Source: Planctomycetia bacterium TMED53 (GTDB lineage: Bacteria; Planctomycetota; UBA8108; UBA1146). From it: DNA of 64,000 bases. The DNA lies in NCBI GenBank assembly GCA_002167285.1, contig NHDG01000117.1:67133-131132 (forward strand). The letters run 5' to 3'. The notes beneath the pieces are model-generated. The model was not told where the DNA came from. It made no database searches and was given only the letters and a program-made list of their open reading frames with translations. Shown here one piece after another: positions 28,677 to 43,441 of the stretch. Every line of letters begins with the position of its first letter. The first letter of the stretch is position 1. The position numbers were made by a program, and so were the translations under genes.

Positions 28677-31550
28677 GTGTCTGACGAAAATTCTCTCTGG
28701 GATTCCATGGGAAAAGTGGGATTTGAAAGCGGGGCTTCCGAAGCTACCGCGGGGGAAGATCTATCGATTCTCCCTGATCGTCACGATATCGCACATCATC
28801 CCTATCGGGCATTTCTTCATCGATTGGAAAAACCGGGGAGATACACCGGCGGAGAATTACACTCCGTCACAAAAGAGGACGCTCAGTTGTCATTCTTGCT
28901 GGCATTCCCCGACGTTTACGAAATCGGTATGAGCCACCTCGGGTTCAAAATCCTTTACTCGCAATTGAATGGCCTTGAGGGAGTGCGTGCAGAGCGGGTC
29001 TATACGCCGTGGATCGATTGCGAAAAAGAACTGCGCAGCCGCAACCTGGAATTGGTGAGCCTGGAGTCCTGGCGAAGAATGAGGGATTTCGACGTCGTCG
29101 GATTCTCGATGCAGTACGAACTGACCTTCACCAACATTTTGACGATGCTGGACCTGGGGGGGATCCCCATCCGCTCCAGTGACCGCGATGACGACTGCCC
29201 GCTCGTCATGGCCGGAGGGCCTGTGGCGTTCCAGCCGGAACCGATGAGCCCTTTCATCGATGCATTCCTGATCGGTGATGGAGAGGGTCACTTCCACAAG
29301 GTGGTCGACCACTGGAAGTCCCTGAAAGAGCTGGGCGTTCCGAGAAGAGATCGCCTGATTCAGATCAGTGGCTTTGACGGGGTTTACGTTCCCTCTCTCT
29401 ACAGTACTCGGGTGGAAGCGGATACCGGCTTTACAGTCGTCGACGCACCTGTCGATGAACGGGTCCCGGCTTCCGTGAAGCGTGCCCATGTTCCGGATCT
29501 GGCCGAGTATCCGTTCCCTGCCAAGTCTCCGGTCCCCAACACGGAGGTCGTTTTTGACCGTGCCAGCATTGAGGTGGCCCGGGGATGCACAGAGGGGTGC
29601 CGCTTCTGCCAGGCAGGCATGATCTATCGTCCTGTTCGGGAAAGACCCCCCGAGGACATCCAGGAAGTGGTTCGCGATGCGGTCAAATGCGGCGGCTTTG
29701 ACGAGGTCTCTCTCACCAGCCTGTCAACGGCGGACTACAGTGCGATTGAACCGCTGGTGAAAAAAATCATGCCGGAACTGCGCGAGAAGAACATCTCTCT
29801 CAGTGTGTCTTCTCTGCGAGCCTACGGCCTGACCGATGAGATGCTGGAAGAGATGTCCAGTGTTCGGAACACTTCCCTGACCTTTGCTCCTGAAGCAGGA
29901 ACGCAGCGGATGCGGGATGTGGTCAACAAAAACATCACGGAAGAAGACATCGCCAAAAGTGCACACCGGATCTTCTCCAGGGGTTGGCGCCGAATGAAAC
30001 TGTATTTCATGATCGGCCTGCCCACAGAAGATGAAAGTGACGTTCGCGGTATCGCTGACACAGGCAAGCGTATGCTCGACATCGCCCGGGAGTATCTCCC
30101 AAAAGGACGAGCTCAGGTGACCGTCTCCGTTTCAAGCCATGTGCCGAAGCCGTTCACTCCTTTCCAGTGGGCTGCGATGGATGATCTTCCAGATATCGAA
30201 ATGAAGCATGATGCCTTGCGGAAATGGACTCGACATCCGGGCCTTCAGCTTCGCTGGCACGATCCGTCGACGAGTCACCTCGAGGGAATCCTCAGCAGGG
30301 GAGACCGGACCATCTCCAATGTCATCGAAACTGCGTGGCGGAAGGGCTGTCGATTCGACGGCTGGTCCGATCGGATGAGGTTTGATTACTGGATGGAAGC
30401 GATCGAGGAGAATGAGATCGACCGCTACCGTTTCCTCGGCACCATTCCCATCGACGCAAGGCTCCCCTGGGACCACCTCGATTGTGGAGTAGAGCCCAAG
30501 TTCCTCAAGCGCGAGTACCAGAGAGCGCTCAAGGATCGGACTTCCCATCCGTGTGGCAAGCCTGGCAAGAGATTGACCCACTACACCAATGTGGAAGAGG
30601 CGAGTGAAGACAAGCGCAGATTGGTTTGTTACGACTGTGGAATTGAATGTGATCTCAGTCAAATGAAAGAAGAGCGCATCGAGTTCCTCGATTTCCTCGA
30701 GGCCAAAGAGAAAAAAGTGGGCAAGGCTTCTTCACAGACGGATGCCGGTGTGGAACAGGTTCGAGAAGAGGCAAAGAAGCGCTTTGCTGCGCGTGCGAAC
30801 CCTAAAATGCCACCAGAGCGAAAAGAGTTGGATCATGCCAGCCATGGATATCGAATCCGATACGCCAAGCTGGGTCGCGCCCGCTACATGAGCCATTTGG
30901 ATCTGAACCGTTTCCTGCCAAGGGCAATTCGAAGAGCCGGGTTCTCTCCGGCATACTCCAAGGGTTTTCACCCGATTCCCCAAATGTCGTTTGGTCCGCC
31001 GCTGCGTTTGGGAATGGCGGGGCTTTCAGAAGTGGTCGATATTCGATTGCAGGAAGATCTCCCAGCAGAGGTGGTTTTTGAGAAGCTCTCTCAGCAGTGT
31101 CCTGACGGAATCGTCATTCGCTCCTTGCATGCTCTGGGTCCTGATGCTCCGAAGCTTTCCATCGTCAGCAACTGGGCTGACATTCTGATCTTTACACCCA
31201 ACCAAGTCGCCGATCGAATCCCGGGTGAAAAACTTGTCCAATTCCTGGACCGCAAGGAGATTCCGGTCGACAGATTGACCAAAAAAGGCAAGCCGAAGGT
31301 GGTCGATATTCGGCCTGGCATCCAAATCCTTGAATGGCTCGAGGAGGTACCAGCAGATGTGGAAGGCCTTCAATCCTGTCAACCAGAGGAGAGATTGCTG
31401 TCGATGCGGATCTGCTTACAGGGTGACCATCTCACCAAGCCTGAGGATGTATTAGTCCAACTGTTTGACGGAGAGTTACCAGTGGGATTACAGGTTGTTC
31501 GCCGTCGCCTACTGCCGGCTCCCAGTTCAAAAAGTTTTATCAGGGTCTGA
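28677..31550 (+). CDS. B12-binding-domain radical SAM protein fused to a DUF2344-type C-terminal domain (957 aa)
   Basis: Radical SAM motif ARGCTEGCRFCQAG (Cx3Cx2C). The N-terminal domain is B12-binding-like. The C-terminal part YRIRYAKLGRARYMSHLDL...GFHP matches the DUF2344 pattern. Confidence 0.85.
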   Translation: MSDENSLWDSMGKVGFESGASEATAGEDLSILPDRHDIAHHPYRAFLHRLEKPGRYTGGELHSVTKEDAQLSFLLAFPDVYEIGMSHLGFKILYSQLNGLEGVRAERVYTPWIDCEKELRSRNLELVSLESWRRMRDFDVVGFSMQYELTFTNILTMLDLGGIPIRSSDRDDDCPLVMAGGPVAFQPEPMSPFIDAFLIGDGEGHFHKVVDHWKSLKELGVPRRDRLIQISGFDGVYVPSLYSTRVEADTGFTVVDAPVDERVPASVKRAHVPDLAEYPFPAKSPVPNTEVVFDRASIEVARGCTEGCRFCQAGMIYRPVRERPPEDIQEVVRDAVKCGGFDEVSLTSLSTADYSAIEPLVKKIMPELREKNISLSVSSLRAYGLTDEMLEEMSSVRNTSLTFAPEAGTQRMRDVVNKNITEEDIAKSAHRIFSRGWRRMKLYFMIGLPTEDESDVRGIADTGKRMLDIAREYLPKGRAQVTVSVSSHVPKPFTPFQWAAMDDLPDIEMKHDALRKWTRHPGLQLRWHDPSTSHLEGILSRGDRTISNVIETAWRKGCRFDGWSDRMRFDYWMEAIEENEIDRYRFLGTIPIDARLPWDHLDCGVEPKFLKREYQRALKDRTSHPCGKPGKRLTHYTNVEEASEDKRRLVCYDCGIECDLSQMKEERIEFLDFLEAKEKKVGKASSQTDAGVEQVREEAKKRFAARANPKMPPERKELDHASHGYRIRYAKLGRARYMSHLDLNRFLPRAIRRAGFSPAYSKGFHPIPQMSFGPPLRLGMAGLSEVVDIRLQEDLPAEVVFEKLSQQCPDGIVIRSLHALGPDAPKLSIVSNWADILIFTPNQVADRIPGEKLVQFLDRKEIPVDRLTKKGKPKVVDIRPGIQILEWLEEVPADVEGLQSCQPEERLLSMRICLQGDHLTKPEDVLVQLFDGELPVGLQVVRRRLLPAPSSKSFIRV

Positions 31551-31775
31551 TTATATAAAAGCGGCATAGCTGGGTGGTGTGTTTCGGATCAATGGTCTCC
31601 ACCCTCATCCGATCCAATCGAGACCTCCAAATAGGTCCACAAAGTGTTTAAAAATTTGTGGTTCCGATATCGTGGTGCGAAGATCCTAATCTGATTCTTT
31701 CCAACTCCTTAAAAATAAACGTGATGATCCTATGCAAGAGTTCTGGGGGACTTCGAGCATGGGGGAAAAGCACAG

Positions 31776-34148
31776 GTGACGATCAGTCAAGAAATTACTG
31801 CAAATATCGCTTTGGATCGCGCAGTTGCCGCGTTAAAGGCCGCAGGCTGTGATCCCAAAAATGCTGATACTCTTCCATATTGCCATAAAGACCTGACCGC
31901 AGGCTCTGAAATGGAGTTCCAGGTCGCGGTGCTGGGATCATGGAAAAATGTTGATCTTCCACAATCCATATTGGGCAGTGATGATCTTACTGACCAAAAA
32001 AAGCGAGTTGCCCGTGGTGAAAGCTCGAGTACTCGCTTGTCCCAATTGGTGGATTTTCTGAAAAACCCTAAGACTTCAGTTTGGGAAAACTCATGGGTTC
32101 GAATCCCGGTGAAAAAAACTTCCAAATCAGTCAATGAAGAGTTTTTGAATGATATGCATTCGGATCGCTTGGATTCAAACAGTGTATTGAGATCTGATCG
32201 GAACATTTTTGAGTTTGAAAAAGACGGCGAGAAGTGGATACGTGTTCCAGTGTCATACCTTCTCAATCTCGCTCTGGCTTCAATTCAGGGTGAATCAATC
32301 CCACAAGTGGAACAGCTCGCGGAAAAACTCAAGATTCATTTTTTGAATGATAACAACTCGCCAGAATCGACTTCTTTTCATGTAATGAATCCAGGCGAGG
32401 CCAGTGGGCGCGGAATTGAGATCGCCAGGGAAGCCTCATTCAGATTTTTGTTCTCGCAACTTCTTGTTCAGTACGCCAATCAAAAATTTGGTTTGTTGGA
32501 GTCGGGGCAAAAAGTTGAGATTTTTTTCCAGCCTCACCCAGCAGAGAACCAAAAATCTCTTAATCGATTGATTTCAGATAATCAGTATCGGGAGCTTTTC
32601 TGCAGTCCATGTCTGTCGGGTTGGCAAAACGGAGAAAAAAAAGCAGCCTATATGAGGTTGTGTCATGAGGTTCTCAGTCGATCACATCTCAACATTATTC
32701 CAAAAATCAAAGACGCTGGAATTCTGAAAAACAATCTTGTCGTATTGCCGAGCACTTCAAGCACATCCCTTTCAAACAATGGCATCCATTTGACACTGGG
32801 TAGCAAATTGTTAACTGAAATGCGTAGTCAGCAATATTCAGGTTTCGGGGCTGAGGAAGAGAAAAGCCTTGTTGATCTGGTATCAAAAGTCGTTGAGCAT
32901 TTTTTAGGTCTTTTTGTAGGTTATATATCAGCTTCTCCCTACCGCCTGGATTTCAAAGATTTCCATCCTGAAGTCGCCCTGGGGTTTCTTCCTCATCAAT
33001 TGACAGGAAAACACCTGCGGATGATCTGGCGTCGTTGGAGAGTGAAAGCAAAAAACAGGTGCTTGGGAAGGACTATGAAACCGTATGGTCCATATTGGAT
33101 AGACCGGATTCGCCAAATTCTCTTCAGGCTTAAAGGGGACCATGTACCAGACTATCGCTTGATTGATTATCCGATTTCATTTTTGAGTACAGAAAAAAAA
33201 TCGTCACAAAATGGTCTACTGGGAAATCACGACCGATTGAAAAGGGACTTGGAAAGAGAAAGTGTCTTTGATAGTCGGATGTCGATGTATTTGCCATTCA
33301 AGCCGCGCTCATATGATTCTCATGGGTTTGTCGGTATTGAAAGTCGGATTCATTCACTGTTCCCCTCATTCAAGCAAGATTTTGCTCTATGTTCAGACCT
33401 GTTGATTCTGCTGACGGCATTTGCTCACCAGCAGATTATTGCAGGGCGAGTTACCCATGATTCCATCCCTGATGACCCGGACTCAGAGAGTGAGCGAAGG
33501 CAGTTGATTTTCGCCTCAGCGCTGGGATTGCCAACCGCCTTCATAAGGCCTCATGGACCTGATTTGTTCATGGGAAGAGTGTTGGCGTACTGCGATGGTT
33601 CTCGAAGAAGTTATCGATACAAAGGAAAAATACGAGTCTCTGTTCAGGAATATTTAAAAGGCTGTCTGAAGTTGATAAAAGTCTCATCAAGTGAACTGAT
33701 CAGTCACTTGGGAATGTCTGAGACCATTCAGGAAATTGAATCAAGAATTGACTACCCACGAGAAAGGAGTAGTGCCGGAAGAATCACGGGTGCTGTCCTC
33801 GAAAATTTACAAGTTTCTTCTCCGATGAATGTGTGTGCGCAGAAGTTTAATCAGGGGCTCGAAGAGTGGTGTCGTGGTGACCTCCGTAATGATCAGTTGA
33901 AGGAGGCATTTGAGGATTTACGAGCGACCTTGATCAGATTAAAGCCCAATGCGGAATTCCAGTCACAAGTAAGTGAACTTGGAAATATCCAGAACCCGTT
34001 GGGATTTGTAGATGAAGTCCAAGAATCGATCGTTCAGCAGGATTGCAGTGAAGACAGGATCGCAACCTTGATTTCATTGATGATTCTGGTTGAACAGTTT
34101 CTGCAAAAAGAATCTGAGAAGCTTGTTGAGAAGGAAAAAGTATCATGA
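31776..34148 (+). CDS. Hypothetical soluble protein, 790 aa, no recognisable family
   Basis: Uninterrupted 2.37-kb frame in an AT-rich segment. GTG start after GGGGGAAAAG. ATGA overlap with the next gene. No TM, P-loop or Rossmann motif seen. Confidence 0.7.
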   Translation: MTISQEITANIALDRAVAALKAAGCDPKNADTLPYCHKDLTAGSEMEFQVAVLGSWKNVDLPQSILGSDDLTDQKKRVARGESSSTRLSQLVDFLKNPKTSVWENSWVRIPVKKTSKSVNEEFLNDMHSDRLDSNSVLRSDRNIFEFEKDGEKWIRVPVSYLLNLALASIQGESIPQVEQLAEKLKIHFLNDNNSPESTSFHVMNPGEASGRGIEIAREASFRFLFSQLLVQYANQKFGLLESGQKVEIFFQPHPAENQKSLNRLISDNQYRELFCSPCLSGWQNGEKKAAYMRLCHEVLSRSHLNIIPKIKDAGILKNNLVVLPSTSSTSLSNNGIHLTLGSKLLTEMRSQQYSGFGAEEEKSLVDLVSKVVEHFLGLFVGYISASPYRLDFKDFHPEVALGFLPHQLTGKHLRMIWRRWRVKAKNRCLGRTMKPYGPYWIDRIRQILFRLKGDHVPDYRLIDYPISFLSTEKKSSQNGLLGNHDRLKRDLERESVFDSRMSMYLPFKPRSYDSHGFVGIESRIHSLFPSFKQDFALCSDLLILLTAFAHQQIIAGRVTHDSIPDDPDSESERRQLIFASALGLPTAFIRPHGPDLFMGRVLAYCDGSRRSYRYKGKIRVSVQEYLKGCLKLIKVSSSELISHLGMSETIQEIESRIDYPRERSSAGRITGAVLENLQVSSPMNVCAQKFNQGLEEWCRGDLRNDQLKEAFEDLRATLIRLKPNAEFQSQVSELGNIQNPLGFVDEVQESIVQQDCSEDRIATLISLMILVEQFLQKESEKLVEKEKVS

Positions 34149-35149
34149 ATCCGCATCAGTTTGTGTGCAGGGAAGACGGTCAGGTAATCACGGAAGAACT
34201 TTTCGGTGATCAAATCGTTCGCTTTCTCTATAGCGAGGCCAGAGAAAAAGCGCCTGCGTTGTTTCAAATGCTGACTGGAGAGCGGGCTTCTGATCTATTG
34301 GGGCTACTGAATTTTGATTTGCCTTTGAGTGCCACTTTTTCCGGAAGCCAACGTTTCTTGAAAGCTCGAGGAGTGGATCTGGAAGAATCCCTGATCTCAG
34401 CGAACGAGATGAAAACTCCCCGGGATTTCTTCGAGAGGAAGATCTGTTATTGGAAATCTCGTCCGATGCCAGAAGATTCTGAAGTTGTCGTGTCTCCTGC
34501 TGATTCCCGAATGATTGTCGGTGGGCTTTCAGAGGTGAGTTATCTGAAGATCAAAGATAAGTTTTTCAAGCTCAATGAGTTGCTTGGCACTGACCGCACG
34601 GACCTTCATACCATCTTCCATGAAGGAGACTTCGCAATATTCAGGCTGACTCCGGAAATGTACCACTGGAATCATGTGCCAGTATCTGGAGTGGTTAGCG
34701 ATATTTACACTCTTGATGGAGATTATCATTCCTGTAATCCAGGTGCCGTTGTCAAAATGGTCACTCCATATTCAGCCAATCGACGAGTTGTGACGATCAT
34801 CGATACTGACGTACCTCATGGTTCGTGGGTCGGAAGAGTGGCAATGGTCGAAATTGTCGCTTTGATGATCGGCGGGATCGATCAAAGGTATTCACAGCAA
34901 AAATATGACAGTCCTACCGATGTTGTTCCTCGAATGTTTCTGAAAAAGGGGCAACCCAAGAGTTTGTACCGGCCCGGAAGCAGTACAGATGTTTTGATTT
35001 TTGAACCGGGCAGGCTTGAATTTGATCAGGATTTGGTCTCATTTCGCAGCCGTTCAGATGTTCAGAGTCGCTTCAATGCATTTGGTGGCCATCTCAATGA
35101 AACTGAAGTGAAAGTCAGGCAGTCCATCGCACGTAAAATAGGGGGGTAG
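34145..35149 (+). CDS. Phosphatidylserine decarboxylase family (pyruvoyl-dependent) protein
   Basis: FFERKI..W..RP, VVSPADSR, FRLTPEMYHWNHVPVSG, NRRVV, MIGGI, and the putative self-cleavage site YRPG-SSTDVLIFE (34976-34984). Confidence 0.8.
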   Translation: MNPHQFVCREDGQVITEELFGDQIVRFLYSEAREKAPALFQMLTGERASDLLGLLNFDLPLSATFSGSQRFLKARGVDLEESLISANEMKTPRDFFERKICYWKSRPMPEDSEVVVSPADSRMIVGGLSEVSYLKIKDKFFKLNELLGTDRTDLHTIFHEGDFAIFRLTPEMYHWNHVPVSGVVSDIYTLDGDYHSCNPGAVVKMVTPYSANRRVVTIIDTDVPHGSWVGRVAMVEIVALMIGGIDQRYSQQKYDSPTDVVPRMFLKKGQPKSLYRPGSSTDVLIFEPGRLEFDQDLVSFRSRSDVQSRFNAFGGHLNETEVKVRQSIARKIGG

Positions 35150-35157
35150 GGCCGATC

Positions 35158-36210
35158 ATGATGATGTTCCTTACGATTTTAGGCCTTGTAACTCTTGTTC
35201 CTTTGATTCTTGGTATTCGAAAGTTGGCCGGTGATCGCTGGCAAGTTTTAGCCTCTATTCCATTGCATTCCAATCCTGATGGAACCTGGGAGGCGGGTAA
35301 CTTCACCTGGTATGGATTTATCTCAGCTTCTGCTTACGCACTTTCGGTCAGTGTATTATGGATCTTGCTACTGGCTCTTGAATTTCAGTTTTCGGAAGCA
35401 GTGATATTGATTACGGCAGTGATGGCTGTCGTGATTCCTTCTTCAAGAAAAATTGCACAATGGATTGAGGGAAGAAAAAACACATTCAGTATTGGTGCTG
35501 CTGCCTTTGTCGGAATGATTTTGTGTCCTCTCTTGCTTTTTATTGTGAGTCAATTGGAGCTCTATGGCCGTCCATTGCCGATTCTTGAGGCTACCGCAGC
35601 CTTCACTATCGCTTATTCATTCGGTGAAGGTTTGGGGCGATTGGCGTGTATTTCATTTGGCTGTTGTTACGGTAAGCCAGTTGATGAATTAACAGGTATT
35701 GCTCAACGGATCTTTAGGCCATTTAAAATAACCTATAACTCCATGGAAACCCGGAAGGTTCAATATGATTCCGGGTATTCCCAAAGGCCCCTGGTTGCGA
35801 TTCCTGCAATCACCGCTGTGCTATGTACAGTTACTGGACTGATTTCTACGGCGTTGTTTTTATCAGGAAATTTTGTTTTCGCATTGCTGTTGAGTCTTGG
35901 TGTCACTCAGATCTGGAGATTTGGTTCCGAGTTTTTACGTTCGGACTACCGGGGAGATAACAGCATCAGTGCATATCAGTGGATGGCTTTACTGGGATTG
36001 TTCGGCGCTATCGTGTTTGTTTCGTCAGTCTCAACCACAGGAGTTGTTCCTGATCTTGACAATGCGTTGACGATGGTTTGGCAACCGGGTCCGATTCTCG
36101 TTACACAGGGTTTATGGCTCTTCATATTTTTTTTCATGGGTTGGAGTGATGTGACAAGTTCGACGGTCAGTCTTCATCTTTGCAGAAACAAGGTTGAGGA
36201 AGCTGTATGA
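35158..36210 (+). CDS. Lgt (prolipoprotein diacylglyceryl transferase) family membrane protein, paralogue-like
   Basis: At least 7 TMs. GEGLGRLACISFGCCYGKP (35635-35679) resembles the GRxGCxxxGCCYGxP motif of Lgt-family proteins. Later there is FLRSDYRGDN.ISAYQW. Confidence 0.7.
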   Translation: MMMFLTILGLVTLVPLILGIRKLAGDRWQVLASIPLHSNPDGTWEAGNFTWYGFISASAYALSVSVLWILLLALEFQFSEAVILITAVMAVVIPSSRKIAQWIEGRKNTFSIGAAAFVGMILCPLLLFIVSQLELYGRPLPILEATAAFTIAYSFGEGLGRLACISFGCCYGKPVDELTGIAQRIFRPFKITYNSMETRKVQYDSGYSQRPLVAIPAITAVLCTVTGLISTALFLSGNFVFALLLSLGVTQIWRFGSEFLRSDYRGDNSISAYQWMALLGLFGAIVFVSSVSTTGVVPDLDNALTMVWQPGPILVTQGLWLFIFFFMGWSDVTSSTVSLHLCRNKVEEAV

Positions 36211-37106
36211 ACCCCAAACAAAAAACCGAACCGGTTTCTCAAAGTGATTTGGATCAATGGATTCAATGGGCATTGATTGCTTCAAGGAAAGCAGCGTCCA
36301 TTCAGAGAGATTTCTTTCGCAATCCGATCATTGAGGCGGATTCAAAAGCAGATGGGTCTCCTGTCACTCTTGCGGATACTCAATCAGAAGAGATCATTCG
36401 CGAAGAATTGAGACTTCAGGGTTCCGAGTTTGGCTTATACGGGGAAGAGTATGGTCAGGAGGGGGAACTGGAGGATTGCTGGGTGATCGACCCCATAGAT
36501 GGGACCCGCAATTTTGTGGATGGTCTGCCAGGTTTTGCGATCCTGATCGGATTGAGGATCAGTGGATCACCTCTTTTGGGAGTGGTTCATGCTCCAGCCT
36601 TGGGGGCGATGGCCGGAGATCCTGAACTCATGGGATGGACGTGGATAGGAATCGCTGACAGGGGAGCATGGCGTGGTTACGGAACTCACCCGCAAACAGC
36701 GCAAAAAGACGCCATCAGGGTTCGTGACTGTAAGGCTCTCAGCGATACCTTTCTCTGTCATGGAGGACTCAGGCATATCCACGAATCCGGGAAGTGGGAT
36801 TCATGGAGCAAGCTCACATCTTCTGTTCGAAGAACTCGGGGATTTGGTGATTGGTGGGGGCACTGTCTTGTCGCAGAGGGTGCAGCCGATGCCATGTACG
36901 ACCCCAGAGTCGAGCTTCATGACACGGTGGCGGTGGAGGCACTGGTTCGGGGTGCCGGCGGAGTTCTGCTTGCTCGCGAGAAAGTGACTCGCAACTACAT
37001 CGGTCCCACTGTGTCAGGGAGTTATGAGATCGCTGAGTCTATCGGTAGATGCATGGAGGAGACCGGTATGGTCCCCGCCTCGAATGCTGAATGGAACAGA
37101 GACTGA
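36207..37106 (+). CDS. Inositol monophosphatase family protein, HisN-like histidinol-phosphatase
   Basis: WVIDPIDGTRNFV, RTRGFGDWWGHCLVAEGAADAMYDP closely resembles the HisN motif RTRGFGDFW..LVAEGA.D. ATGA overlap with the upstream gene. Confidence 0.8.
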   Translation: MNPKQKTEPVSQSDLDQWIQWALIASRKAASIQRDFFRNPIIEADSKADGSPVTLADTQSEEIIREELRLQGSEFGLYGEEYGQEGELEDCWVIDPIDGTRNFVDGLPGFAILIGLRISGSPLLGVVHAPALGAMAGDPELMGWTWIGIADRGAWRGYGTHPQTAQKDAIRVRDCKALSDTFLCHGGLRHIHESGKWDSWSKLTSSVRRTRGFGDWWGHCLVAEGAADAMYDPRVELHDTVAVEALVRGAGGVLLAREKVTRNYIGPTVSGSYEIAESIGRCMEETGMVPASNAEWNRD

Positions 37107-37116
37107 AGAGCACTCA

Positions 37117-37353
37117 CTAGGCGGAGCAGTCGTCGCCAATCGCCTCGACGGGGCATTCTTCCTTCGCTTGTTCGCAGAGTTCTTCCTCTTCCGGGGAAGT
37201 AGGCTGCTTAAACACGAAAGAGTAGCCTTCGTCTTCGTTGGCCTTGAAGTTGTCAGGAGCGGTAGTTCTGCAGAGATCGCAGTCGATGCATTCGTCATCG
37301 ACGTACCACTTGCCTGCGATATTACTTTCGACCTTGTTTGCGGGATCTGCCAT
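37117..37353 (-). CDS. Small 4Fe-4S ferredoxin (78 aa)
   Basis: MADPANKV...DECIDCDLCRTTAP...EECPVEAI. ATG 37353 is preceded by AGGAGG. Confidence 0.8.
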   Translation of the reverse strand: MADPANKVESNIAGKWYVDDECIDCDLCRTTAPDNFKANEDEGYSFVFKQPTSPEEEELCEQAKEECPVEAIGDDCSA

Positions 37354-38538: not shown

Positions 38539-39873
38539 ATGGTGGATCAACAACCCCAAAGCTCTTCATCGATTTGGTATGGTTGGGCCCGAACCAGTCG
38601 GGCCAACTCCCAGCTCGTCAACTGCGACGATGTGAACTCTGCCAAAGCCGGAATTCAAGATTCAGCATATTGGTTGCCGAGGGGGGCAGGTTGCAGTTAT
38701 GGCGATGCTGCCCTGAGTGATGGTGGTCGTCTTCTTCGGCCACAATTTCCTTCTGAGATTGTTGCTTCTTCGAATCCAAACTCGGTACGGGTACCCGCTT
38801 CGATGCCATTGGGAGAATTGTTGGCCCGGTTGTCGTTGGAGGAGTTAACCCTACCGGTCGTCCCTGGTGTTTTGGCAGCGACGGTGGGTGGGATGGTTGC
38901 GGCAGATGTCCATGGAAAAAATCACCAGCGATCTGGAAGCTTTGGTAATTGGGTAGAGGCGATTAAATTGATGCCGCCTGACGGGGAATACCGCTGGTGT
39001 ACAAGGGAGAGTGATCGCGAACTCTTTGAAGGAACCATCGGCGGGATGGGACTGACCGGAATCATCCTCGAAATTGATCTCCGTGTCGTCAGGCGTAGTG
39101 ATTCGTTGGCACAGGTTCATGTAGAGGCGACAGATTCGATTGCACAGACTTTAGATCGTTTGGAAAAGTCATCTCGCACTGCCGATCATTCATCCGCATG
39201 GTTAGATCTCGCCCTCAATAGCCCAAGTCTTGGTAGAGGAGTGGTGATCGGCGGCTTTCTCCAATCGGTTGAGAAGGAGACAGTCAGCCAGCTGTGGGAG
39301 CCGAGGTCAGGGCCTGTGTTTCCGCCAATGCCGGTGCCCGGTGAGTCGATGATTCGATTGCATAATAGTTTTTATCACGGCTTTGCACGTCTGCTCCCAG
39401 TTGTTCGACGATGGCCACTTGAGAAGTTGTTGTTTCCGTTGGAAGCCTGGAGGGACTGGAGAAATGTTTACGGGAAATCGGGTTTCTATCAACACCAGTG
39501 CTTGATTCCAGAATCGGTAAGAGTGGCAGGTCTCGAATCGATCTTGAAGATGATCAAGGAATGCCAGATTTCTCCGACGCTGGCGGTATTGAAAATGATG
39601 GGTGAAGGCAATGGCGGTTTGTCTTTCCCTGCCCCAGGAGTCACCCTGTCGCTGGATTTCAGGAATCAAGCGGGGGTTCTCCAACTGTTAAACAATTTGA
39701 ACGCTCTGGTCGCCGAGTTCGGAGGTAGAGTTTATCTCGCCAAGGATTCAACTTTGACCGCGGGATTGTTTCAAAAGATGTATCCTCAGTTGGATCAATT
39801 TTTGGAGTTGCGTCGTCGCATCGATCCAGGCGGGCGAATCAGGTCTGATCTATCAAGCAGGCTGGGAATGTGA
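38539..39873 (+). CDS. FAD-binding (PCMH-type) oxidoreductase, DprE1-like
   Basis: GWARTSRANSQLV...LPRGAGCSYGDAAL, HGKNHQRSGSFG, GGMGLTGIILE, and a C-terminal ALO-like region. The start is uncertain (38479 or 38539). Confidence 0.75.
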   Translation: MVDQQPQSSSSIWYGWARTSRANSQLVNCDDVNSAKAGIQDSAYWLPRGAGCSYGDAALSDGGRLLRPQFPSEIVASSNPNSVRVPASMPLGELLARLSLEELTLPVVPGVLAATVGGMVAADVHGKNHQRSGSFGNWVEAIKLMPPDGEYRWCTRESDRELFEGTIGGMGLTGIILEIDLRVVRRSDSLAQVHVEATDSIAQTLDRLEKSSRTADHSSAWLDLALNSPSLGRGVVIGGFLQSVEKETVSQLWEPRSGPVFPPMPVPGESMIRLHNSFYHGFARLLPVVRRWPLEKLLFPLEAWRDWRNVYGKSGFYQHQCLIPESVRVAGLESILKMIKECQISPTLAVLKMMGEGNGGLSFPAPGVTLSLDFRNQAGVLQLLNNLNALVAEFGGRVYLAKDSTLTAGLFQKMYPQLDQFLELRRRIDPGGRIRSDLSSRLGM

Positions 39874-41718
39874 ATCGATCGCTCCTTGTTGTGATTCAAC
39901 GTAAATCGGCAAGGTGATGGTAAAGGTGGTTCCTTGGCCGTCACGACTCTTTACCTCCACATTGCCGTCATGTTTCAGGCAAACATTTTTGACGATGGCA
40001 AGGCCAAGGCCCGTTCCTCCGATCTCCCGTGAACGTGCCTTGTCTACTCTGAAGAACCGTTCAAAGATTCGATCGAGGAGTTCTTCCGGAATACCGATCC
40101 CGTTGTCGCGAATCTCGATGATGGCCAATTCGTTTTCACTACACAGTGTTGTTTGAATAGTGCCTTCAGCTGGAGTGTACTTGAGACCATTGTCGATCAG
40201 GTTGCCGATAGCCTGGCGCAGATCTTCTTCATTTCCGAATACAAAAATAGGTTCCTTGGGTGCTTCGAATTTAAGCGCGGCTTGATTTTCCGGAGAGGTC
40301 ACCTTTGACAATGAGCTGATGCGCTCATTTATCAGCGAGCCCAGATCAATTTTTACACGGGGTGTCTTTTTCTTCTCATCGAGGCTGGCCAGAGCCAGCA
40401 AATCTGACACGAGGTTCGATAGTCTGTGAGACTGATCCGTAATCTTGGCGGTGAACTTGTGTCGAATCTCTGGATCTATATCTGGATCATCCAACAAGGT
40501 CTCTGCGATTCCGCGGATTGCGGTGATGGGTGTTTTTAACTCATGGGATACGTTTGCAACAAAGTCTCTGCGCATATTTTCGAGTTGGCGGGTCTGAGAT
40601 AAATCATGAAGCACGATCAGGGCGCCAGAGACGTCTTGTCCGTAATCGACTAGCGGACTGGTGTAGGCCTTTAGGAAGATCTCGTTTGGCCCGGTCTCGA
40701 GATCAAGTTCAGCCTCCAGCGGTCTTTGAATGCGAAGGGTGTTGAGAAGCAACTCAGTAATTTCGGTATTATTAACGACGTCAGAGATGTATTGCCCCTT
40801 TGCCTCCCTGATTTCAAGCTTGAGAATCCTGCTCATCACTGAGTTGATGAGCACAATTTTCCCTAAATCATCGATGGCGATGAGACCATCCCGCATCCCT
40901 CCCAAGATGACTCGCATTCGATTGTGCTCGAGGTGGATCTCTGAGACTTGTTCCTGAATCTCATCTGCGAGCTTGTTGAGAGCTTCTCCGAGAAGATCAC
41001 TCTCGACATCCAATCCATTGGGAGCGCGAGCAGAAAAATCACCTTCAGAGTAGGCGACAGCAACTTTGGTAAGAATTTTAAACTGCCTGTTGATCCTTCT
41101 GTAAAGGAGGTGACCCATCACCATTGCCAGCAACGCAGCGATTAACCCCAGCAATAAGACGCTCTCGAAGATAGAGTCAATTTGAGAGATGACCAAACTG
41201 GGGTCTTGTGCAATTCTGAGAAGGTAATTTTTATCATTACCCGCTGAATAGAAGCGCATGATCACTGAAGGAAATTGGTCTCGAGCAGAGCCCAGATTGA
41301 AATTTGCGAGAGCAAATGATCGATCAGATTTAAAAAACTCTGAGAGCTCGGGGTAGAGGGTTTTTGGATTAGTGCTCGTTGAAGGTTTGCTGTTATCTCT
41401 CGATATAAATTCGGTTCCTTCCGAATTCAGCAAATCGATTCGCAGCTGAGGTTTTCGATTATTTTCGATTGTTGCAATGATCGATTTTTCATCGAGCCAG
41501 CTCCATGAGCTTGAGAAGGCTTGCGCTTGCTCAGTCATTCGCTGTTCAAAATTATAAAAAGTATCTTTAGTGAACCTCTCACAGAGAAGGTAACCAAAGA
41601 ACCAGCCTCCAAAGGCAATCAGCACTCCGTAAACAGAGTATACTTGCCAGAAAAAACGGGGCGTTGCGGCATTGGGATCAGTATTTGAAGCGGTATCCGA
41701 CTCCACGCACGGTTTCAA
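39853..41718 (-). CDS. Sensor histidine kinase (2 TM, periplasmic domain, HAMP, PAS, HisKA, HATPase), PhoR-like
   Basis: H-box SHELKTPITAIRG, N-box NLIDNGLKYTP, DNGIGIP, GGTGLGLAIV. TTG/GTG start overlapping the regulator gene. Confidence 0.9.
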   Translation of the reverse strand: MKPCVESDTASNTDPNAATPRFFWQVYSVYGVLIAFGGWFFGYLLCERFTKDTFYNFEQRMTEQAQAFSSSWSWLDEKSIIATIENNRKPQLRIDLLNSEGTEFISRDNSKPSTSTNPKTLYPELSEFFKSDRSFALANFNLGSARDQFPSVIMRFYSAGNDKNYLLRIAQDPSLVISQIDSIFESVLLLGLIAALLAMVMGHLLYRRINRQFKILTKVAVAYSEGDFSARAPNGLDVESDLLGEALNKLADEIQEQVSEIHLEHNRMRVILGGMRDGLIAIDDLGKIVLINSVMSRILKLEIREAKGQYISDVVNNTEITELLLNTLRIQRPLEAELDLETGPNEIFLKAYTSPLVDYGQDVSGALIVLHDLSQTRQLENMRRDFVANVSHELKTPITAIRGIAETLLDDPDIDPEIRHKFTAKITDQSHRLSNLVSDLLALASLDEKKKTPRVKIDLGSLINERISSLSKVTSPENQAALKFEAPKEPIFVFGNEEDLRQAIGNLIDNGLKYTPAEGTIQTTLCSENELAIIEIRDNGIGIPEELLDRIFERFFRVDKARSREIGGTGLGLAIVKNVCLKHDGNVEVKSRDGQGTTFTITLPIYVESQQGAIDSHSQPA

Positions 41719-42373
41719 TCAGGTTGCGATGGGTTTCACCCAACTTCTTACGAATAGATCGAATGTGTACATCCACATTCCTGTCAATCACTACCGTATC
41801 GGATCCTACCACCTTGGAAAGCAGTTGTTCGCGACTGAATACCCTTCCTGGATGGGATGCTAGAAAGTGGAGCATTCGAAACTCTGTTGCTGTCATAGGG
41901 ATAGATTCCCCATCGATAGAAAGATCGTGACGGATATTGTCGAGAACGAAGCCATCCACCGAAATCCTATCCTTGCTTTCGACCGTCTCCTTGAGGGGGG
42001 CTCTGCGCAAAACTGCTTTAACCCTTGCCACTAATTCTTTCGGGCTGAAAGGCTTACTGACGTAATCATCTGCTCCAACACCGAGGCCGAGAACGACATC
42101 GCTCTCTTCAGTTTTTGCAGTGATCATGATGACTGGGATGTCCCGGGTGACGGGGTCTTCCTTAACCTTTTTACAAATTTCGAGGCCGTCGATTCCTGGT
42201 AGCATCAAATCAAGTAGGACTAAATGGGGGTGATCTTCTCGAATCGCCTCAAGGCCCCTCTCCCCGTCTCGATAACCTCTGACGTTGTAGCCCTCGCGGG
42301 AAAGGTTGTATTCGATGACGTCTAAAATATCGGCTTCATCTTCAACGATGATGATATTTGCCTTTTTGCTCAA
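41678..42373 (-). CDS. OmpR/PhoB-family response regulator
   Basis: IIIVEDE, LVLLDLMLPGIDG, TRDIPVIMITA, KPFSPKELVARVKAVLRR, wHTH TVRGVGYRF. Confidence 0.95.
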   Translation of the reverse strand: MSKKANIIIVEDEADILDVIEYNLSREGYNVRGYRDGERGLEAIREDHPHLVLLDLMLPGIDGLEICKKVKEDPVTRDIPVIMITAKTEESDVVLGLGVGADDYVSKPFSPKELVARVKAVLRRAPLKETVESKDRISVDGFVLDNIRHDLSIDGESIPMTATEFRMLHFLASHPGRVFSREQLLSKVVGSDTVVIDRNVDVHIRSIRKKLGETHRNLIETVRGVGYRFKY

Positions 42374-43302: not shown

Positions 43303-43441
43303 GAAACACCTCGTTTTCAGGATTATTGGTCCGATCTGGCTTGAAGCAAGGGTGGAGAGGGATCCTGGAACTGGTTCGAAGCTGTTTCCGTGGCTAAGAT
43401 GTGATTTTGGGCCTTATTCCTCGATCTGAGAGTGGAGCCAA

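Follow-up and report, generated by a model that had tools for sequence, protein, structure and literature searches.

The window analysed here, a 64,000-nucleotide stretch of contig NHDG01000117.1 from Planctomycetia bacterium TMED53, a marine member of the Planctomycetota, contains a gene for a 790-aa protein, referred to as BIG, that is followed directly by genes for paralogues of phosphatidylserine decarboxylase (PSD) and of Lgt. These three genes (31776–36210), referred to below as the cassette, are in turn followed by a phosphatase gene. The order BIG, PSD-like, Lgt-like, phosphatase is held together by an ATGA overlap, an 8-nt gap and a second ATGA overlap, the latter between the Lgt-like stop and the phosphatase start. 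The features of the cassette are as follows.

31776–34148, + strand: gene for the 790-aa protein BIG, a predicted soluble ATP-dependent carboxylate–amine ligase with the fold of the glutamate–cysteine ligase (GCL)/glutamine synthetase superfamily
E45/E47, E104 or E197, H338, R390 and E522/R524 of BIG: candidate ligand residues, from motif order and predicted strands
34145–35149, + strand: PSD-family pyruvoyl decarboxylase paralogue, 334 aa; PF02666 at E=4e-36; predicted self-cleavage between G278 and S279 of G278-S279-S280
35158–36210, + strand: Lgt-family membrane protein paralogue, 350 aa; PF01790 at 29.2 bits against a cut-off of 24.9; about nine transmembrane (TM) segments; inverted core topology predicted

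The original prediction, made from the DNA letters, had regarded the BIG frame as long, clean and unlikely to have arisen by chance, and this was borne out. The 790 codons, read from a GTG start with GGGGGA 8 nt upstream, contained no stops and no frameshifts, and the chance of a stop-free run of this length at the local GC content of 43.8 % was about 9e-21. The description of the DNA as AT-rich held in relative terms, the GC content of the gene being lower than the 53–55 % of the flanking DNA. Comparison with a sister genome gave a ratio of non-synonymous to synonymous polymorphism (pN/pS) of 0.19; BIG is an intact, real gene under purifying selection, and the decay considered in the original prediction was not observed. 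The absence of a TM segment was likewise upheld (maximum 19-residue Kyte–Doolittle mean of 1.47), and a motif scan of the BIG sequence agreed with the prediction in finding no Walker A, GxGxxG (Rossmann), HEXXH or HxKxxxxD (HKD) motif. All of the peptides quoted at that time, namely NNGIHLTLGS (encoded at 32775–32804), MIWRRWRVKAKNR, PYCHKD and FCSPCLSGW, were present. The BIG stop and the PSD-like start share the sequence ATGA, which supports the proposed translational coupling of the two genes.

BIG had been described as an orphan, which it is not. A search of 5.8 billion clustered proteins identified at least 1,899 homologues (90 % clustering, E≤1e-3). Among the best 120 homologues listed, identities were 43–48 % over near-full length, besides one near-copy that was 97 % identical; all were unnamed or ‘hypothetical’ and none had a Pfam domain. 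An exhaustive search with a profile against 1.84 billion representatives gave 886 clusters at 50 % identity, of which about 30 were full-length and the remainder fragments, and detected no more distant families. At least 576 loci in species-representative genomes encoded a relative, and these were spread over many phyla rather than being restricted to one lineage; carriers included Geobacterales, Desulfuromonadales, Syntrophales, Desulfobacterales, Nitrospira, Blastocatellia, Brocadia, Nitrospinota, a few Planctomycetota and the gammaproteobacterium Litoribacillus. Within the Planctomycetota the gene was rare (five of 151 genomes, three of 136 genera), and in the genus of the window organism it was found in two of the four species. 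The window BIG formed the longest branch of the family tree, where it grouped with another Planctomycetia metagenome-assembled genome (MAG) and with the marine aerobe Litoribacillus. Judged by this long branch, by the low-GC stretch and by the lack of any family annotation, the frame might have been open by chance, in decay or an orphan confined to its lineage; given the homologue searches, the 886 clusters, the intact frame with its chance probability and the pN/pS of 0.19, such a reading is refuted and has practically no probability left.

The most diverse alignment of the family contained 38 invariant columns, a result that also speaks against decay. H338, E522 and R524 were among the invariant residues and E45/E47 were at least 90 % conserved. 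The most conserved stretches, SPCLSGW...GE.K..YM.LCH and HLRMxWRRW, correspond to BIG residues 260–335 and 400–420 (32553–32780 and 32973–33035). These were also the least confident parts of the structure model described below, and may represent a mobile lid or a substrate-binding loop.

Sequence searches did not place the protein, as the original prediction had implied. BIG had no match in Pfam or NCBIfam, PADLOC returned nothing, and phmmer and profile searches of PDB sequences gave only chance matches, T4 lysozyme and NifB among them. An AlphaFold2 model of the full-length protein, built from a 32-sequence alignment, had a predicted local distance difference test score (pLDDT) of 85 and a predicted template-modelling score (pTM) of 0.90. 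Its five top Foldseek matches in the PDB all belonged to the superfamily of glutamine-synthetase-type carboxylate–amine ligases:

Match 1: GshF, 3ln7; E 2.8e-3, probability 1.00
Match 2: E. coli GshA, 1va6; E 1.6e-2, probability 0.99
Match 3: Francisella GshA, 3nzt; E 6.6e-2, probability 0.96
Match 4: yeast GCL, 3ig5; E 0.11, probability 0.72
Match 5: PafA, 4bjr_B; E 0.33, probability 0.89

Dop followed at rank 9 and glutamine synthetase type III at rank 17. Comparison with the E. coli GshA sequence revealed five motifs in BIG that lie on predicted β-strands and are collinear with the metal and phosphate ligands of GshA. The pairs are:

Pair 1: BIG GSEMEF (E45/E47) with GshA GLERET (E27/E29)
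Pair 2: BIG VWENSW (E104) with GshA LLEFIT (E67)
Pair 3: BIG NNGIHLTLGS (H338) with GshA ISGVHYNFS (H150)
Pair 4: BIG PYRLDF (R390) with GshA SLRLSD (R235)
Pair 5: BIG GIESR (E522/R524) with GshA IEVRS (E328/R330)

The numbering of the GshA ligands (E27/E29, E67, H150, R235, E328/R330) follows Hibi et al. (2004).

The best structural match of the BIG model was thus the GshA type (1VA6/1V4G/2D32, 3NZT and the GCL domain of 3LN7; PF04262), with which BIG shares the strand-borne motif order E-x-E, E, G-x-H, R-L-x-D, E-x-R. Both are soluble and lack a P-loop, as is expected of ATP-dependent enzymes with the glutamine synthetase fold. The reaction of GshA, between the γ-carboxyl of glutamate and a cysteine-type amine, is the chemistry proposed here for BIG. 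BIG differs from GshA in showing no detectable sequence-profile similarity, in possessing approximately 270 extra residues (insertions at about 112–190 and 257–335 and a 170-residue C-terminal helical domain) and in the position of its gene, which is never beside gshB and is encoded with lipid enzymes; the acceptor may therefore be lipid-linked. PafA/Dop and YbdK/GCS2 belong to the same superfamily, and PafA and Dop were among the Foldseek matches, but both ranked below the GCLs and the cassette has no Pup-like partner. PF04107, the family of GCS2, did not match BIG either, and GCS2 was absent from eight of nine cassette genomes.

Several results count against the assignment of this fold. The Foldseek TM-scores were only 0.30–0.45, the E-values were modest and all derive from a single predicted model; a separate model of residues 25–630 had a pLDDT of 70.6 and gave non-significant matches, with GshA still first at E 2.2. 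The equivalence of the paired residues is provisional, being judged by the order of the motifs and their context on predicted strands. Pfam found no match in any of 32 BIG homologues at E≤10. Alignment of the family with the single E. coli GshA sequence by hhalign was non-significant, and when the 80-sequence profile and the diverse alignment were compared with a GshA profile of 28 sequences (E. coli and 27 gammaproteobacterial genomes) the probability was ≤1 %. The matches listed by a homologue search started from E. coli GshA were all at least 82 % identical to it. Since neither PF04262 nor PF04107 matched and the hhalign probability was ≤1 %, BIG should not be filed as GshA or GCS2. With moderate confidence, it represents a new family with a GCL-like fold outside both, and we consider it likely that it is a GCL-fold ligase acting in a pathway of lipid head-group synthesis. 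The original prediction, in which no catalytic signature could be recognized, therefore stands as far as sequence searches are concerned, whilst the predicted fold and the five collinear motifs suggest a GCL-type ligase, the structural search having found a known family at moderate strength. Taken as a whole it was partly confirmed: the gene is real, yet it is neither an orphan nor featureless.

The connection with lipid enzymes was examined in 69 loci from other species with at least 2.6 kb of downstream sequence, and in 79 other loci in all for the survey of neighbouring genes. A PSD-family gene directly followed BIG in 66 of the 69 loci, and 62 also possessed the Lgt-family gene, so that the functional tie that had been suggested for these genes is well founded and the adjacency nearly constant. 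In two loci without an adjacent Lgt-like gene, one was found 5–10 kb away on the same contig. This synteny spanned the Thermodesulfobacteriota, Nitrospirota, Acidobacteriota, Planctomycetota, Nitrospinota and one gammaproteobacterium. Each of the eight larger genomes tested also encoded a Psd of the short, canonical kind and a canonical Lgt of 266–300 aa (184–277 bits), which makes the cassette copies extra paralogues. The window genome has a second, ordinary PSD on another contig (C77); no canonical Lgt was found in this MAG, which is 83 % complete.

The PSD paralogue scored below every NCBIfam Psd equivalog cut-off. It shares with phosphatidylserine decarboxylase (PF02666) the pyruvoyl self-cleavage site and the Asp and His residues, and differs in having G-S-S in place of G-S-T, in lying far under those cut-offs and in being additional to the housekeeping Psd. 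D120, H174, H177 and G278-S-S280 were kept in 71–72 of 72 members. Because the Asp, the two His and the self-cleavage site are conserved, the protein is most likely an active pyruvoyl decarboxylase, and its substrate would be a head group with a terminal α-amino acid.

The Lgt paralogue likewise combines retained and lost features. Its Pfam score (PF01790) was above threshold and it retains equivalents of Y26, G104, R143, G154, R239 and E243 of E. coli Lgt, including the arginines that bind the phosphate of phosphatidylglycerol (PG). Its variant of the Lgt signature, GR-x-x-C-x-x-x-G-C-C-x-G, occurs in some true Lgts. In contrast to Lgt, it is an extra paralogue present in addition to a canonical Lgt, lacks H103, D129 and Y235, and has one additional TM segment at each terminus. 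The charge distribution of its loops is inverted: in all 64 members, loops matching the periplasmic loops of E. coli Lgt contained a mean of 18.7 Lys and Arg residues, compared with 2.0 in the equivalents of the cytoplasmic loops. This inverted bias and the positive-inside rule together place the predicted catalytic face in the cytoplasm. The features of an Lgt orthologue, a periplasmic active site with H103 and Y235, were thus not found. Such an orientation would bring the chemistry of the Lgt paralogue into the compartment accessible to BIG, as a soluble ATP-dependent enzyme, and to a peripheral PSD.

A candidate for the product of such a module has been reported from a cassette-bearing species. 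Under phosphate limitation, Desulfatibacillum alkenivorans PF2803T replaces phosphatidylethanolamine (PE), PG and cardiolipin with BACys lipids (‘N-butyramide cysteine glycerol’), which come to represent about 65 % of its lipids (Ding et al., 2024; PMC11181052). A composition of about 90 % phospholipids gives way to BACys and glucuronosyl lipids, and the BACys head group yields a fragment C7H13O3N2S+ at m/z 205.064; neither genes nor a pathway were proposed (PMC11181052). Our literature searches found no paper that assigns genes to BACys lipids and none on the cassette. The loss of CO2 from γ-Glu-Cys (Glu + Cys − H2O − CO2) gives C7H14N2O3S, for which the fragment was calculated at 205.0641, and the isomer γ-glutamyl-cysteamine has the same formula. 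D. alkenivorans DSM 16219, which we take to be the type strain, possesses an intact cassette encoding proteins of 827, 344 and 358 aa (L074:974-5644). The cassette of this strain is preceded by genes for two Glu_synthase-domain proteins and a GAF-ANTAR regulator.

From these elements a pathway can be proposed. The Lgt paralogue would transfer the diradylglyceryl group of PG to a cysteine-type thiol, with release of glycerol phosphate. BIG would use ATP and a metal cluster bound by Glu and His residues to activate a carboxylate as its acyl phosphate and would pass it on to an amine, in this case joining the γ-carboxyl of glutamate to the amine of cysteine or cysteamine, and the PSD paralogue would take off one α-carboxyl. 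As two isomers share one formula, two orders of reaction fit: the Lgt paralogue could be followed by BIG and then by the PSD paralogue acting on the γ-Glu end, or by the PSD paralogue acting on S-diradylglyceryl-cysteine, a close analogue of phosphatidylserine (PS), and then by BIG. The product would be a zwitterionic, phosphorus-free lipid containing sulfur and nitrogen, with the head group C7H14N2O3S (4-aminobutanoyl-cysteine or γ-glutamyl-cysteamine). In the planctomycete, the phosphatase that follows the cassette might free phosphate from the glycerol-phosphate by-product. The earlier guess that BIG ‘supplies or recognises the substrate’ fits a predicted ligase that contributes a portion of the head group.

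The substitution of phosphorus-free lipids for phospholipids ranks among the major adaptations to a scarcity of phosphate, and the PlcP/Agt, BtaAB, Ols and Sqd gene sets serve as environmental markers of phosphorus stress. The cassette resembles the PlcP+Agt, BtaAB, OlsBA/OlsF and sulfoquinovosyldiacylglycerol (SQDG) systems in its proposed role, the exchange of phospholipids for phosphorus-free lipids, but the enzyme families are wholly different. A further likeness is its recurrent linkage to pst genes: PstS/PstCAB operons occurred within 6 kb of the cassette in about ten of the 79 loci, in at least six lineages, where chance would predict about 0.3 % of loci. In Nitrospira, the three genes are flanked by a PHO4 phosphate transporter and a HAD phosphatase. 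At the cassette locus of D. alkenivorans (L074), no pst genes were present.

On balance, an ATP-dependent ligase of the Glu/Cys type, working in a module that turns PG into a phosphorus-free sulfur- and nitrogen-containing lipid, is the probable and best explanation of the locus as a whole. The intactness of the gene, the size of its family, the synteny, the paralogy, the conserved residues, the inverted charges and the island with an empty site are observations, whereas the ligase chemistry, the substrates, the sequence of reactions, control by phosphate and the lipid product are inferred. The narrower proposal, that the trio makes a BACys-type product and so supplies the missing pathway for BACys-type lipids, is tentative, its chance being a little short of even. 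Part of the evidence weighs against it. The BACys structure is tentative and derives solely from MS2 (tandem mass spectrometry), and the main text that describes it states no thioether link (PMC11181052). The connection of these lipids with the cassette consists of a correlation in a single organism, a match of formulae and chemical logic; it is attractive and unproven. The inverted topology of the Lgt paralogue is in itself a prediction from the positive-inside rule. The window BIG is the longest branch of its family, so its substrates could differ. Comparison of the regions upstream of the island, of the porin–pstSCAB–phoU operon on contig C92 and of the PhoB-like operon yielded no convincing Pho box. 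The PhoB/PhoR-like pair close by is part of the core genome, for which reason its closeness to the island may be accidental.

Other readings of the cassette were compared with this head-group ligase. BIG might modify the amine of an ordinary aminophospholipid, either by γ-glutamylating PE or PS or by adding an amino acid to a PS-like intermediate, and so serve in the tuning of phospholipids. The architecture of the PSD paralogue is that of a complete phospholipid PS decarboxylase, GCL-fold enzymes accept many amines, and no phosphate-uptake genes lie inside the cassette of D. alkenivorans or of the window, all of which would suit such a role. We nevertheless regard it as unlikely, since it offers nothing for the Lgt paralogue with its PG-binding arginines to do and leaves unexplained both the repeated linkage to pst operons and the exact match of Glu + Cys − CO2 to a head group in a cassette-bearing organism. 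A protein substrate is less probable still. BIG would then be a PafA/Dop-like ligase or deamidase, and the Lgt paralogue would lipidate a protein at the cytoplasmic face, as might be suggested by the presence of PafA and Dop among the Foldseek matches and by the action of canonical Lgt on proteins. The GCLs outrank PafA and Dop, however (probabilities 0.72–1.00 against 0.16–0.89), the clusters of cassette neighbours contained neither a small ORF resembling Pup nor a conserved gene for a target, and PSD-family enzymes are, to our knowledge, known to act on lipid head groups only.

A non-catalytic role is very improbable. No sequence profile recognizes BIG, and its roughly 270 residues beyond GshA include a long C-terminal helical domain, which could point to a scaffold or regulator, a pseudo-enzyme that brings the two paralogues, PSD and Lgt, into order on the membrane. 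The most conserved positions of the family are those of the candidate catalytic ligands, as seen in the invariant H338, E522 and R524 and the near-constant E45/E47; pseudo-enzymes usually lose such residues.

The genomic setting of the cassette in the planctomycete comprises the following additional features.

31551–31775, + strand: intergenic region upstream of the four-gene block, a putative promoter/operator with a palindrome and a GGATCAATGGTCTCCACCC word
about 31600–37120, no strand assigned: four-gene accessory island of 5.5 kb with approximate boundaries; empty site in two sister species
36207–37106, + strand: IMPase/HisN-like phosphatase, 299 aa; PF00459 at E=1e-33; TIGR02067 at 175 against a cut-off of 275
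39853–42373, − strand: PhoR/PhoB-like two-component system, 2.7 kb past the island; core genome, aligning with sister genome G144

The four genes form an island that was missing, phosphatase and cassette alike, from the two sister genomes (G144 and G235). In G235 the stop of the upstream radical-SAM gene was followed by about 59 nt and then by sequence matching the window from 37126 onward, and in G144 the gap between the flanking genes was about 409 nt. The first three genes had a GC content of 44–47 %, compared with 53–55 % in the flanks, and pN/pS values for the four genes ranged from 0 to 0.19. No integrase or flanking repeats were found at the island. A 17-nt direct repeat (31579–31595 and 36244–36260) around the low-GC part was considered as an att site and rejected, since chance alone should produce roughly one 15/17 match of this kind in 5.9 kb. 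In none of the other 79 loci was the phosphatase linked to the cassette. Its score of 175 bits is below the HisN cut-off of 275, it is a member of the island and not of a histidine operon, and at 52.9 % GC it stands apart from the other three genes.

The nearest record of the window organism is the MAG MCMED-G47, and PSCyt/DUF1501 genes occur nearby. Between about 29800 and 38500 the window contained an 8.7-kb tract that was 96–100 % identical to the MCMED-G47 MAG (L007), compared with 75–80 % on either side; besides all four island genes, the tract includes a ferredoxin gene, an MqnA-like gene and the radical-SAM gene in its 3′ half. The pattern points to a recent transfer of the island among related species through homologous recombination, or possibly to chimerism of the MAG contig. 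In the best reading, the island was probably acquired horizontally. Three features are new here: a clean island for which the empty site is known, the phosphatase attached to it, and the finding of the cassette in a marine planctomycete that is aerobic.

The intergenic region upstream of BIG contains a perfect 7-nt inverted repeat, CCACAAA-N11-TTTGTGG (31637–31661), which lies 115 nt before the GTG and is a possible operator, and the GGATCAATGGTCTCCACCC word at 31586–31604. A pattern defined post hoc, GGATC-N2-6-TCTCCACCC, occurred twice in the 2.98-Mb genome, before BIG and before the PhoB-like operon (43350–43365, − strand), and could be a shared operator; the 10-mer TCTCCACCC part by itself had 21 occurrences. 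The comparison of the three upstream regions also yielded a common TCAATGG word, which like the common GGATC...TCTCCACCC word was defined post hoc. The PhoB-like protein scored 265.7 against TIGR02154 (cut-off 296.2) and the best NCBIfam match of its partner was PnpS/PhoR, both being just under the equivalog cut-offs. On contig C92, an operon with a porin-like gene, pstS, pstC, pstA, pstB and phoU (C92:23210-29080) has upstream of its porin gene a candidate Pho box, in which CTCAATGGCC is repeated in tandem about every 10–11 bp.

The gene directly upstream of the island (28677–31550) encodes a 957-aa fusion of a B12-binding radical-SAM protein (TIGR03960) and TIGR03936/DUF2344 that is unrelated to the cassette. 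It was rejected as a member of the module, being absent from all 79 other loci and part of the core genome here. Clustering of the neighbouring ORFs in the 79 loci revealed several recurrent neighbours. Fusions of PHP and glycosyltransferase family 4 (GT4) type lay beside the cassette in 16 loci from relatives of Geobacter and Desulfuromonas (L064:10911-13313, − strand, and 15 others), encoding an 800-aa protein with a C-terminal GT4; its N-terminal part was PHP-like by eye, whilst Pfam gave GT4 domains alone. This protein could make glycolipids that accompany the sulfur- and nitrogen-containing lipids under phosphate stress. A gene for a DksA/TraR-type zinc finger was located between the PSD-like and Lgt-like genes in 11 Syntrophales loci (L084:3910-4314 and ten others), and DUF2062 proteins and α/β-hydrolases were also recurrent.

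We know of no described precedent for a direct swap of the PG head group by Lgt-type alkyl transfer in the synthesis of bulk lipids. If the proposed pathway is correct, a cytoplasm-facing enzyme of the Lgt type makes a bulk thioether glycerolipid from PG and recovers phosphate in doing so, a GCL-fold ligase is the first of its superfamily to take part in lipid head-group synthesis, and a PSD paralogue decarboxylates a non-phospholipid. The pathway would moreover be mobile, having entered aerobic marine Planctomycetota on an island of 5.5 kb that includes a phosphatase of its own.

The cassette provides concrete candidate genes for the abundant sulfur- and nitrogen-containing lipids reported in 2024, and its carriers are of biogeochemical importance: anammox bacteria, Nitrospira, relatives of Geobacter, syntrophs, Acidobacteriota and marine Planctomycetota. 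Even without the link to lipids, the BIG family, which occurs in hundreds of species, is unseen by Pfam and NCBIfam and has a GCL-like predicted fold, merits a family model. Confirmation would give a function to an unannotated family of proteins of about 800 aa, would show that the chemistry of Lgt has been re-used, in reversed orientation, to make bulk lipids and would add a new marker to those by which phosphorus stress is recognized in genomes. In that case, a strategy of lipid remodelling would reach beyond anoxic sediments into surface ocean waters that are poor in phosphorus.

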